DNA of 64,000 bases from sequence record LC788709.1. One strand, 5' to 3'. Positions within the stretch are counted from its first letter, which is position 1, and the number at the start of each line of letters is the position of its first letter. Shown in pieces: positions 57,348 through 64,000 of the stretch. The notes beneath the pieces are model-generated. The model did not search any database, had not been told where the DNA came from, and saw nothing but the letters and a program-made list of their open reading frames with translations. This DNA comes from Escherichia coli phage Shin27. Position numbers and translations under genes: made by a program.

Positions 57348-57422
57348 TGGTGCTCCCACCAGGAATCGAACCCGGTTCAGATGCTTACAAGGCAACTGCA
57401 TCGCCAGCAATGCTTTAGGAGC
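57348..57422 (-). tRNA. tRNA-Thr(TGT): tRNA-Thr (TGT)
   Basis: hand fold: acceptor GCTCCTA/TGGGAGC, D-stem GCAT/ATGC, anticodon loop CTTGTAA, T-loop TTCGATT. Confidence 0.6.
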
Positions 57423-59440: not shown

Positions 59441-59521
59441 TGGTAGGGATGGAGGGACTCGAACCCACACCCGAAGACTAGAACCTAAATCTAGCGCGTC
59501 TGCCAATTTCGCCACATCCCC
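59441..59521 (-). tRNA. tRNA-Leu(TAG): tRNA-Leu (TAG)
   Basis: hand fold: acceptor GGGGATG/CATCCCT, D-loop AAATTGGCAGA, anticodon arm CTAGA-TTTAGGT-TCTAG, extended variable region. Confidence 0.6.
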
Positions 59522-59847: not shown

Positions 59848-59926
59848 TGGTGGAGAATAAGAGATTCGAACTCTTCTGATATCCTCGGTGCAAGCGAGGT
59901 GTCCACTCCAAGCAGACCCATTCCCC
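59848..59926 (-). tRNA. tRNA-Ala(TGC): second tRNA with TGC anticodon (Ala-like, 7-nt variable loop)
   Basis: hand fold: acceptor GGGGAAT/ATTCTCC with G3-U70, anticodon arm CCTCG-CTTGCAC-CGAGG, T-loop TTCGAAT. Confidence 0.5.
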
Positions 59927-62305: not shown

Positions 62306-62877
62306 TTTAACTTTTTAAGTTCTTTAGGATTGCCTCCTAAAGAAGTGTATCTTTTACGCAACCCATTATCTGAATAACTTAACTTTCTCCCTGCACCTGA
62401 CCAGCCTAGCTCTCTTACTGTAACCTCGATTATTTCTTTAGTTATAGAGATATCTTTTGGTTTATGTGAAGAGCACTCCTGACATTTTTCAGCTTTTAAA
62501 GAAATAGCTTTACCACAATCCTTACAACAATTATCATGGTTTAGTTTACTAAATCCTTTATCTTTTAAAGTCTTTTCTAGATGCTGCTCTTTTGTGAGCA
62601 CTTGTAAGTTATTAAGACCCCAATAAGTAATGTCTGTGTTAATATGGTCAACTTCTAGTTCAGAGTCTAGACTTGGTAATTTCTTAAATGCACATGCTAA
62701 AATCCTATGTACACCGGTATTTCTCTGTTGACCATTTTTATGGAGACGTATAGATAAGTATCCGTAATTACTGGTTATTTGGGTTAGTATTTTGTTTGAT
62801 TTGATACTAAATACTAACCCATCCAAACTTACTAAGTACTCCTCAAACCCTGGAATGGGTAAGGATATTCCGTGCAT
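62296..62877 (-). CDS. HNH homing endonuclease
   Basis: 193-aa ORF; NUMOD4-like N-terminus, HNH core VDHINTD...NNLQVLTKEQH; abuts tRNA-Asp. Confidence 0.6.
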   Translation of the reverse strand: MHGISLPIPGFEEYLVSLDGLVFSIKSNKILTQITSNYGYLSIRLHKNGQQRNTGVHRILACAFKKLPSLDSELEVDHINTDITYWGLNNLQVLTKEQHLEKTLKDKGFSKLNHDNCCKDCGKAISLKAEKCQECSSHKPKDISITKEIIEVTVRELGWSGAGRKLSYSDNGLRKRYTSLGGNPKELKKLKVL

Positions 62878-62880
62878 AAT

Positions 62881-63066
62881 TTACTCAGTTTTGAGTTTTT
62901 CGATAGCTTCCTCAACCTCTTTTAGAGCTTCACGACGCTCTACTTGACCTTGAAGTTCTTCAAGAAGTTCAGCTTTCAGAGCCTTAATAATATTACCACG
63001 AACCTTAATATTATTAATCAGATTATCACGATCAGCTTCTAGTCGAGCAATTGCACGAGTTGTCAT
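62881..63066 (-). CDS. small coiled-coil protein
   Basis: 61-aa ORF. Confidence 0.3.
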   Translation of the reverse strand: MTTRAIARLEADRDNLINNIKVRGNIIKALKAELLEELQGQVERREALKEVEEAIEKLKTE

Positions 63067-63169
63067 ATCTATTTCCTCAGTTGTTAATGAAAAATGGTAT
63101 CTGTGACTGAATTCGATATCAGCAATGATAGCTGGTTGGCTACCGGTTTACTTAACTCTACACAGAATA

Positions 63170-63252
63170 TGGCGGGCCGTGTAGGATTCGAACCTACGTT
63201 GTCTTTCGACATGGATTAACAGTCCACCGCCAAACCGCTTGGCTAACGACCC
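63170..63252 (-). tRNA. tRNA-Asn(GTT): class II-like tRNA (Tyr-type architecture) with GTT (Asn) anticodon
   Basis: hand fold: 3-bp D-stem GCC/GGC, anticodon arm GTGGA-CTGTTAA-TCCAT, 13-nt variable arm, T-arm GTAGG-TTCGAAT-CCTAC, discriminator G. Confidence 0.5.
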
Positions 63253-63259
63253 TAAAATT

Positions 63260-63335
63260 TGGACGACCGCATGAGATTCGAACTCACATAAGGAGGTTTT
63301 GCAGGCCTCCGCCTAAGCCATTCAGCCAACGGTCG
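63260..63335 (-). tRNA. tRNA-Cys(GCA): tRNA-Cys (GCA)
   Basis: hand fold: anticodon loop CTGCAAA, T-loop TTCGAAT, CCA encoded. Confidence 0.55.
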
Positions 63336-63513
63336 ATTTATCTTGCTTTTCGAGATTAGTAAACTCTAGATCTTTAGAATGTCCTATAGATCTAGCATAA
63401 TAGCCATCTCCAGCATCGTAGCCTGATTTACCGCACTCACACATCTTAAACTCTCTATAATGAGTGAAAATATGTTCAGAACCACAACACTTAAATTTAA
63501 CTAACATTTTCAT
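63322..63513 (-). CDS. Cys-rich zinc-ribbon-like small protein
   Basis: 63-aa ORF with CCGSEH and CECG motifs. Confidence 0.35.
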   Translation of the reverse strand: MKMLVKFKCCGSEHIFTHYREFKMCECGKSGYDAGDGYYARSIGHSKDLEFTNLEKQDKSTVG

Positions 63514-63752
63514 TTAACACGCTCCGGTAAATCTTCGAGTTTATATTGAGTAGCCACATTAGCAGCATCTAGTAACAAACCCATATGTTTAAGAATCCTA
63601 GTGATAGCCTCGCCTTCTGCTTCTTCTACAAAAGTGCGTAGTTGAATGAAGTCAATACCCCCATCCATACCAGAGAAAATGTTTAGTAAGCGAAGCATTA
63701 CCAGCTTACGTTCTTTCAATTCTTGTTCTGTCATGTTGCTTCTCCAGTTCAA
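63510..63752 (-). CDS. hypothetical protein
   Basis: 80-aa ORF directly downstream of a T5-type promoter. Confidence 0.4.
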   Translation of the reverse strand: MNWRSNMTEQELKERKLVMLRLLNIFSGMDGGIDFIQLRTFVEEAEGEAITRILKHMGLLLDAANVATQYKLEDLPERVK

Positions 63753-63763
63753 TTTATGTAATA

Positions 63764-63792
63764 ATTATACAGAACTTTAAGCGGTTAAGCAA
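63764..63792 (-). promoter_or_regulatory. T5-type early promoter (TTGCTT-N17-TATAAT)
   Basis: upstream of 63510..63752. Confidence 0.55.
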
Positions 63793-63801
63793 CTACATTT
63801 T

Positions 63802-64000
63802 TTAAGAATTTGATGCCTTTCTTTTTCTTCTTATATTTCCACGTTAACGGGTTCTGTCGATTATGAACGCTTGAGATCTTTGTCTCGTCAAAGTTCTTCA
63901 AAACCATGTAATCACAGGCCAACTGTTCTAGTGGGATGTGATCTCCATCAAAAGCATAAACATAAGGCTGTTGACTAGCACGATAATGATAGACTTTGTT
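63802..64000 (-). CDS. hypothetical protein, 3' portion only (gene start beyond window)
   Basis: open minus-strand frame running to window edge, stop near 63802. Confidence 0.3.

Follow-up and report, generated by a model that had tools for sequence, protein, structure and literature searches.

In bacteria, a long extra arm is normally found only on the tRNAs for leucine, serine, tyrosine and selenocysteine. Within a 64,000-nucleotide (nt) stretch of DNA from Escherichia coli phage Shin27 (LC788709.1; this whole stretch is referred to as the window), the minus strand of positions 63170-63252 encodes a tRNA that joins the asparagine anticodon GUU to an extra arm of this kind. Which amino acid does such a tRNA accept, and what would a phage gain from its shape? 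The initial annotation, made from the letters alone, had described a class-II-like body with an Asn anticodon and a G at the discriminator position, and had offered an anticodon-switched tRNA, a decoy or a target mimic for a host anticodon nuclease as explanations. We find that a conserved, covarying extra arm on tRNA-Asn is common in phages and nearly absent from cells, which breaks the textbook reservation of this arm. Judged from its sequence, the gene very probably encodes a functional, Asn-accepting phage tRNA, because it unites GUU with the identity base G73, is the phage's only tRNA-Asn and has a cloverleaf under selection.

ARAGORN called 21 tRNA genes in the window, all on the minus strand. 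The tRNA-Asn gene and its parts are the following:

63170..63252, minus strand: long-arm tRNA-Asn(GUU), whole gene with encoded CCA, 83 nt (ARAGORN, Rfam RF00005, fold, GenBank annotation of identical records)
63218..63220, minus strand: anticodon GUU in the loop CUGUUAA (direct read; ARAGORN anticodon position 33)
63198..63210, minus strand: 13-nt variable region GUCGAAAGACAAC (minimum free energy fold; covariation in orthologues; shuffle test across the family)
63229..63243, minus strand: D arm GCCA-AGCGGUU-UGGC (ARAGORN and Infernal drawings; consensus; alignment with the host)
63211..63227, minus strand: anticodon arm GUGGA-CUGUUAA-UCCAU (compared directly with asnT)
63170..63173, minus strand: discriminator G73 (63173) and genome-encoded CCA (63172-63170) (sequence)

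The RNA begins GGGUCGU-UA-GCCA-AGCGGUU-UGGC-G-GUGGA-CUGUUAA-UCCAU, continues with the variable region GUCGAAAGACAAC and ends GUAGG-UUCGAAU-CCUAC-ACGGCCC-G-CCA. ARAGORN, Rfam and a direct read of the sequence agree on the class-II-like body, the anticodon GTT and G73. Scoring with a covariance model had been proposed as a check: RF00005 matched the gene over the full model (1-71) with 59.0 bits (gathering score 29; E=1.6e-12), and ARAGORN called a tRNA-Asn, not a standard tRNA-Tyr(GTA). The alignment to RF00005 puts a 10-nt insertion in the variable region, and both this insertion and the fold confirm the predicted 13-nt variable arm at 63210-63198. The arm consists of a 3-base-pair (bp) stem, GUC/GAC, a GAAA tetraloop and then 3 unpaired nt, AAC. 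In the minimum free energy fold, the cloverleaf and this GAAA-capped hairpin form together (-30.5 kcal/mol, z=-2.3), with an acceptor stem of 7 bp and a T stem of 5 bp, the canonical 7/5 arrangement. The 3-bp D stem described initially is correct for the conserved family stem, many orthologues carrying G13/A22 at the next site. In the window sequence, though, A13-U22 can pair as a fourth bp, and both ARAGORN and Infernal draw 4 bp.

In bacteria, Asn identity resides in the anticodon and G73, and it can be transferred to a different tRNA body (PMC9976931). The window gene has both elements, with GUU at RNA positions 33-35 (standard positions 34-36), and the early view that G73 fits Asn better than Tyr, with its A73, agrees with this rule. 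Because GUU and G73 both define bacterial Asn identity, we propose that the host asparaginyl-tRNA synthetase (AsnRS) would charge the window tRNA with asparagine. Bacterial tRNA-Asn usually has a class I body, and the variable region of normal phage and host tRNA-Asn is 4-5 nt, where the window gene has its 13-nt stem-loop. A short variable loop is a typical trait of the tRNA-Asn family and not a known identity determinant.

Comparison with the class I tRNA-Asn of E. coli (asnT, asnU, asnV and asnW) separates the parts that are alike from those that are not. Shared are the loop CUGUUAA, G26, the G27.U43 wobble, G73, a canonical T arm and the expected AsnRS. With asnT (L002, 4550-4625) as the reference, the two anticodon arms, G-GCGGA-CUGUUAA-UCCGU in the host and G-GUGGA-CUGUUAA-UCCAU in the window, differ by one compensated pair, 28:42, which is U-A in the window and C-G in E. 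coli. The host has the 5-nt variable region AUGUC and the first pair U1-A72, whereas the window gene has its stem-loop, G1-C72 and a class-II-like D arm with C16 in the loop in place of the host's U16. BLAST detected no sequence homology between the window gene and any E. coli tRNA gene; a host-derived gene was rejected as an origin, since a search of 5,426 E. coli genomes gave only marginal matches (E>0.5) to unrelated tRNAs.

Is this gene a single oddity or one of many? The 301 nt around it recur at 100% identity in Salmonella phages bux and Sepoy (Epseptimavirus, Demerecviridae) and in Escherichia phage TrudiRoth; as a query they matched 435 records, most with an annotated tRNA-Asn. The 83-nt gene alone is present at ≥95% identity, identical copies included, in 268 GenBank phage records, nearly all of them labelled tRNA-Asn. 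Further BLAST relatives (78-92% identity, 84-88 nt) occur in T4-like phages of Klebsiella, Enterobacter, Serratia, Shigella and Erwinia and in a T5-like Proteus phage. All BLAST relatives bearing a tRNA annotation are tRNA-Asn or Asx.

For a wider survey, we scanned IMG/VR with the pattern GGACTGTTAATCC-N(14-30)-GGTTCGAATCC, which demands a variable region of 9-25 nt. Because this pattern fixes the anticodon arm, including GUU, and the T loop, the conservation of these parts in the viral survey set is circular; the BLAST-based relatives and an anticodon-free scan are independent of it. The pattern matched 68 contigs of 13 kb to 476 kb, yielding 47 distinct sequences with variable regions of 9-20 nt. 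All 34 loci checked held a tRNA-Asn(gtt) of 79-90 nt by ARAGORN, inside a tRNA cluster, and all extracted matches were called likewise. G73 is found in 43 of the 47 family sequences, and U1-A72, the usual first pair of bacterial tRNA-Asn, in 31. The family must be larger than the pattern shows, since two further long tRNA-Asn genes turned up in loci that had been chosen for a normal-length tRNA-Asn.

The same pattern, run against one genome for each of 185,579 bacterial and archaeal species, matched 6 places. Four of these are on contigs of metagenome-assembled genomes, two in dense phage-type tRNA clusters and two as long tRNA-Asn genes standing alone; the remaining two are not tRNAs. Thus, the long-arm tRNA-Asn family is phage-restricted and almost absent from cellular genomes.

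Sequence variation within the family shows that its structure is maintained. RNAalifold recovered the cloverleaf; 14 of its 19 pairs, spread over every stem, show compensatory changes. In the MAFFT/RNAalifold alignment of all 47 sequences the variable arms are out of register, so the arm was assessed by a shuffle test and by a pair count in 10 closer orthologues instead. Variable regions of the family fold with a mean of -2.85 kcal/mol, compared with -0.48±0.12 kcal/mol for their shuffles, and 0 of 1000 shuffles reached the observed value; they form 27 different stems and carry GNRA loops in 23 of 47 cases. When the 10 orthologues were laid on an explicit cloverleaf-plus-arm structure, 98.7% of cells were paired, and none of 500 shuffles scored as high. 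The arm helix itself was fully paired (100%), 3 of its 4 pairs showed a change in both partners (stems GUC/GAC, GUUC/GAAC, AUCC/GGAU and GUCA/UGAC), and the G27.U43 wobble was kept in 9 of the 10. We conclude that the whole cloverleaf is under purifying and compensatory selection.

These observations bear on one alternative, an ordinary codon-supplementing tRNA-Asn whose arm is unrelated to defence. AsnRS might tolerate the arm because it reads nothing beyond the anticodon and G73, or the arm might be kept because it stabilises the core of under-modified, rapidly made phage tRNAs or helps to process a polycistronic precursor. Such a reading agrees with the position of the variable region outside Asn identity, with the variation of arm length in both directions among T5-like phages (tRNA-Leu(UAA) of 77 nt, tRNA-Leu(UAG) of 81 nt) and with the use of GNRA-capped hairpins as generic stabilisers. 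However, the arm is kept by compensation across very divergent phages and several amino-acid families, which indicates selection on the arm, and its near-absence from cellular genomes is unexpected for a mere good stabiliser. Additionally, several phage clusters hold long and normal-length tRNA-Asn(GUU) genes side by side, suggesting that the two are not redundant. We therefore consider an ordinary tRNA-Asn unlikely, although it retains appreciable weight.

Could the tRNA instead be a tRNA-Tyr whose anticodon mutated from GUA to GUU, leaving a Tyr-charged missense tRNA or an inactive pseudogene? The shape does suggest tyrosine. The family arm has a median of 15 nt with a 3-bp stem and 3-4 unpaired 3' nt, and tRNA-Tyr from the same contigs, E. 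coli and T5 has 14 nt, 3 bp and 3 nt, so the arm is indeed Tyr-sized, as had been proposed. Class II tRNA-Tyr(GUA), with an arm of about 13-15 nt, has a conserved 3-bp D stem, as the family consensus does, and the loop CTGTTAA, read directly, is one base off the tRNA-Tyr loop. With the anticodon masked, the identity of the long tRNA-Asn to Tyr (0.59) is marginally above that to Ser (0.57), Leu (0.56) and normal Asn (0.55), and some of the best single matches to the window gene (0.65-0.67) are tRNA-Tyr of T4-like phages. These margins are small, however, and long-arm Cys tRNAs are closer still at 0.61; a call of Tyr, Ser or Asn ancestry from sequence affinity was abandoned, as a spread of 0.55-0.61 is too small to decide.

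The identity elements point away from tyrosine. Tyr identity follows A73 together with the anticodon GUA (U35, A36) (PMC9976931), and the window gene has G73 in place of the universally required A73 and U36 in place of A36. The complete Sepoy genome encodes 29 tRNAs, with a single tRNA-Asn, a separate 91-nt tRNA-Tyr and three tRNA-Ser. Its tRNA-Tyr is no closer to the long-arm gene than are unrelated tRNAs, and a recent duplicate of a phage tRNA-Tyr or tRNA-Ser was dismissed after pairwise comparison with the 28 other Sepoy tRNAs gave background identity only. Scanning IMG/VR with an anticodon-free pattern (anticodon stem plus variable arm) found 15 loci, all GTT, and no sibling with GTA, GCT or another anticodon. 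GUU is common to the orthologues in T5-like and T4-like phages of Escherichia, Salmonella, Proteus, Serratia, Erwinia, Klebsiella and Enterobacter. With no sibling anticodon in that scan and an unrelated tRNA-Tyr in the phage itself, a recent switch from tRNA-Tyr is not supported; the Asn or Asx labels of all BLAST relatives, the similarity of the anticodon arm to that of E. coli tRNA-Asn and U1-A72 in most family members count against such a switch as well. A mutated tRNA-Tyr is thus very improbable. "Tyr-type architecture" is fair wording for the shape, while the present identity is Asn; the gene may have arisen long ago from a class II scaffold.

Serine is the other amino acid to be considered, since seryl-tRNA synthetase (SerRS) ignores the anticodon and reads the arm together with G73, G1-C72 and G2-C71; a Ser-accepting missense tRNA would place serine at Asn codons. 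All the Ser-type elements G73, G1-C72, G2-C71 and C11-G24 are present in the window gene (rules from PMC9976931), and proposals for allo-tRNAs follow the same logic (PMC5389517). The size of the arm, the major SerRS determinant, and its orientation are nevertheless not those of tRNA-Ser: the window arm has 3 bp and 3 unpaired 3' nt, where the tRNA-Ser genes of phages and host have 6 bp and 1 nt (median of 15 genes: 19 nt, 6 bp, 1 nt). Native tRNA-Tyr, which has an arm of the same size, was reportedly serylated by Himeno et al. in 1990 only after its variable stem had been lengthened. Moreover, U1-A72 in two thirds of the family (31/47) is incompatible with the conserved G1-C72 of tRNA-Ser, and the window gene is its phage's only tRNA-Asn. 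Serine misacylation is accordingly a very unlikely function.

Two described groups of tRNAs invite comparison. In allo-tRNAs and selC* tRNA-Cys (Mukai et al. 2017, PMC5389517) the acceptor/T branch is 8/4 or 9/3 and the D and anticodon stems are long and Sec-like; for most of them the predicted amino acid is Ser or Ala. The window tRNA, by contrast, is canonical 7/5 with cognate Asn elements. The nematode nev-tRNAs (Hamashima et al. 2012, PMC3333845) resemble it in placing anticodons of class I amino acids on class II bodies, but these eukaryotic tRNAs receive Leu by way of the body and thus serve alternative-code decoding. In the window tRNA, body and anticodon clash in shape only, and the identity elements match the anticodon. 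A full-text literature search found no description of a tRNA-Asn with a long variable arm or of variable-arm extension in phage tRNAs. Hundreds of records already label the gene tRNA-Asn, and the counter-defence role of phage tRNAs is established; the gene's class-II-like architecture, the conservation and covariation of that architecture, its restriction to phages and its co-occurrence with similar long tRNAs are apparently undescribed.

What selective value might such a tRNA have? A connection with host tRNA nucleases is plausible, since AriB, the nuclease of PARIS, cleaves E. coli tRNA-Asn(GUU) between nt 40 and 41 and phage tRNA-Asn aids rescue: co-expression of the T5 tRNA-Lys, tRNA-Thr and tRNA-Asn rescued both PARIS toxicity and infection (PMC12409363). 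In an AlphaFold 3 model from that study, a second AriB monomer reads U16-U17 of the D loop, and a U16-to-C change impairs cleavage of tRNA-Lys (PMC12409363). The word "variable" does not occur in that paper.

Our preferred explanation, which we regard as probable, is an AsnRS-charged back-up tRNA-Asn that is useful when defences deplete the host tRNA-Asn. It would be transcribed with tRNA-Cys as part of the early tRNA cluster, processed and, once charged, used to read AAC and AAU codons for the phage. It would keep Asn decoding going once tRNA-cutting defences have depleted host tRNA-Asn(GUU), of which AriB is the documented example, and a defence-proof substitute for the host tRNA is a plausible selective value. 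Any resistance to AriB would have to come from the altered body, because the cleavage-site sequence is unchanged: U36-A-A-U-C/C41 (cut at the slash) is retained, U39, C40 and C41 are identical to the host and only pair 28:42 differs. The candidate features are the extra arm, which begins at nt 44, 3-4 nt from the scissile bond, and C16 at the modelled U16-U17 contact. That the extra arm itself confers protection is conceivable, but we hold this part of the explanation with some doubt.

Such a role has a published precedent in the tRNA-Asn of T5 (T5t17), a PARIS counter-defence tRNA. The same isoacceptor, it lies in a T5-like genome in the syntenic slot between tRNA-Cys and "rna3" and has the same presumed role of replacing host tRNA-Asn. 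The initial annotation had suggested looking for its feature among the T5 tRNA genes; T5t17 does not have it, being a distinct class I gene of 78 nt in that slot, with U32 and a mismatched anticodon stem (…GCAUC UUGUUAA GUUGA…). T5t17 carries the AriB-site substitutions G39, U40 and U41, whereas the window gene keeps the site sequence and adds the extra arm.

Two phages used in the PARIS work carry relatives of the window gene. Bas34 (SelmaRatti, MZ501103) "encodes tRNA-Asn" and yet required T5 tRNA-Asn in trans (PMC12409363). We found that its gene (72598-72680; L199, 17599-17681) is a deletion chimera with the downstream initiator-type tRNA-Met, running as long-arm tRNA-Asn to the T loop and then as the tRNA-Met 3' end; three central acceptor pairs are broken and ARAGORN makes no call. 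The published Bas34 puzzle is explained by this broken copy, and Bas34 was accordingly set aside as evidence against long-arm tRNA function. In Bas33 (HildyBeyeler, MZ501074) the long-arm tRNA-Asn is intact (86 nt, arm AUCC-GCAA-GGAU) and accompanied by an 87-nt long-arm tRNA-Thr(UGU). This phage lacks tRNA-Lys(UUU) and was rescued by tRNA-Lys alone (PMC12409363). This rescue is consistent with long-arm tRNAs that work under PARIS attack.

Several points weigh against the back-up explanation. The AriB site U36AAUC/C41 is retained in the window tRNA, whereas T5 tRNA-Asn is mutated at 39-41, and on its sequence the window tRNA may well be cleavable by AriB. Class II synthetases approach the tRNA from the side of the variable region, and an extra arm could hinder AsnRS. 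T4 and T7 were rescued without any phage tRNA-Asn, which suits an ordinary codon-supplementing tRNA and makes the reasoning from Bas33 indirect (PMC12409363). Additionally, the rescuing tRNA of PrrC170 is tRNA-Lys.

The unchanged cleavage site also raises the question of whether the tRNA is a decoy or sponge, one that keeps the recognition sequence, binds a host tRNase such as AriB non-productively and titrates it off host tRNA-Asn. The AriB site UAAUC/C is kept exactly, and the authors of the PARIS study suggested that some viral tRNAs might inhibit AriB by competition (PMC12409363). On the other hand, a full Asn identity set, an encoded CCA and a conserved canonical T arm would be superfluous for a pure decoy, and C16 in the D loop should weaken AriB binding, not strengthen it. 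A decoy or target mimic, as the initial annotation had envisaged, is therefore less likely than a working tRNA, and we judge a pure decoy to be improbable.

Returning to the tRNA-Asn gene, its immediate neighbours on the phage genome are:

63260..63335, minus strand: tRNA-Cys(GCA), 7 nt upstream of tRNA-Asn (ARAGORN, Rfam; 92% identical to T5)
63088..63166, minus strand: degenerate tRNA-like segment directly downstream of tRNA-Asn (T5 "rna3" homology 81%; fold)

The tRNA-Cys and tRNA-Asn genes probably share one transcript. A sigma-70-like promoter scan of the minus strand over 62800-64000 found none, and a promoter and terminator scan around tRNA-Asn gave nothing informative on the minus strand. 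In the downstream segment, an acceptor-like stem of 6 bp encloses two hairpins and ends in ACCA; ARAGORN and Rfam made no call on it, and the T5 annotation of "rna3" is "putative tRNA-like RNA".

Homology between the window and T5 covers tRNA-Cys (92%), resumes inside the T arm of tRNA-Asn and continues through "rna3" (81%), so that only the T arm and the 3' flank of the two tRNA-Asn genes are homologous. In this alignment, the segment at 63088-63166 marks the conserved 3' boundary of a swapped tRNA-Asn allele. At ≥95% identity, 132 records carry the T5-type allele and 268 the long-arm allele, which is therefore the commoner one among T5-like GenBank genomes. In T5, a 172-amino-acid open reading frame (ORF) with a T5orf172/MUG113 domain, T5.069 (L072, 8007-8525, minus strand; NC_005859, 34006-34524), separates tRNA-Cys from the T5-type tRNA-Asn, whose 5' end it overlaps. 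It is absent from the window, where the gap between the two tRNA genes is 7 nt. In some GenBank records the ORF found here is labelled a homing endonuclease, and we take the T5orf172/MUG113 domain to be a relative of the GIY-YIG nuclease superfamily. The two tRNA-Asn alleles may be exchanged together with a mobile endonuclease.

GenBank treats the locus inconsistently. Among records matching 63100-63400, some place hypothetical-protein coding sequences across tRNA-Asn, some lack the gene and some name it tRNA-Asx (examples are MK728825, with Sepoy_100, MK972704, CP000917, MN187969 and MF001363), and one record names the adjoining tRNA-Cys "tRNA-OTHER". There is thus an annotation hazard in several records, in which the tRNA-Asn is mislabelled as tRNA-Asx, missed or overlaid by protein-coding ORFs.

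Other tRNAs of these phages are unusual as well. The converse anomaly affects tRNA-Leu, which in T5-like phages has a class-I-sized or very short variable region, not the expected bacterial long arm; examples are Sepoy tRNA-Leu(UAA), 77 nt (L001, 14231-14307), and the window tRNA-Leu(UAG), 81 nt, at 59441-59521. ARAGORN also called a second tRNA-Ala(tgc) of 79 nt at 59848-59926 of the window (minus strand), beside a normal tRNA-Ala. It is the only one of the 21 calls below the Rfam tRNA gathering score, and its acceptor stem apparently has the Ala identity pair G3.U70; the Sepoy feature table lists neither tRNA-Ala gene.

Is the long arm confined to asparagine? Phage clusters also encode over-long tRNAs (82-91 nt) for the normally class I amino acids Cys, Trp, Thr, Asp, Pro, Ile, Glu, Met and Lys, located in our loci as follows:

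L005, 9032-9115 and 9120-9203: over-long tRNAs
L018, 4377-4465, 4635-4716, 12820-12906 and 12913-13002: over-long tRNAs
L020, 345-428: over-long tRNA
L022, 440-525, 1324-1407 and 1414-1498: over-long tRNAs
L027, 3029-3119 and 3153-3235: over-long tRNAs
L036, 2071-2157, 2166-2249 and 3488-3573: over-long tRNAs
L075, 4198-4287: over-long tRNA
L140, 759-844 and 845-933: over-long tRNAs

Aligned examples for Cys, Trp, Thr, Ile, Pro and Met have the design of the long tRNA-Asn, with a class-II-like D arm (GAGUGGUYGAA) and a short extra hairpin that is often GNRA-capped, and each isoacceptor retains its own discriminator, such as U73 in Cys and G73 in Trp. Among about 145 tRNAs from loci not chosen for long tRNA-Asn, 6 were of the long-arm kind. 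The 87-nt long-arm tRNA-Thr(UGU), with the arm GGA-GUAA-UCC, is present in some T5-like phages (L200, 14775-14861, which is HildyBeyeler, or Bas33; L008, 4406-4492), and the tRNA-Thr(UGU) of the window phage is normal, with 75 nt at 57348-57422. Host tRNA-Thr(UGU) is a primary AriB target (PMC12409363). Several phage-type contigs with large tRNA clusters also encode a tmRNA (L035, 6897-7297; L075, 7619-7952; L093, 5794-6173; L128, 944-1349).

More speculatively, phages might keep a class of "armoured" tRNAs, in which class I isoacceptors are built on a class-II-shaped body with a short, GNRA-capped arm as a shape-based shield against nucleases of the host, AriB and others, that cut in the anticodon arm. 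Asn would be the most frequent, with Thr, Lys, Cys, Trp, Ile, Asp, Pro and Met also represented, and identity would be set by the anticodon and discriminator. We consider this generalisation unlikely as it stands. With host tRNA-Asn(GUU) known as the target of an anti-phage nuclease, the idea that phages escape tRNA-cutting immunity through tRNA shape and not through cleavage-site sequence is testable with existing assays. If it is true, armoured tRNAs would be an evasion route distinct from the point mutations in the anticodon loop and stem described so far, and the window gene would be the enterobacterial, T5-like example of such tRNAs.

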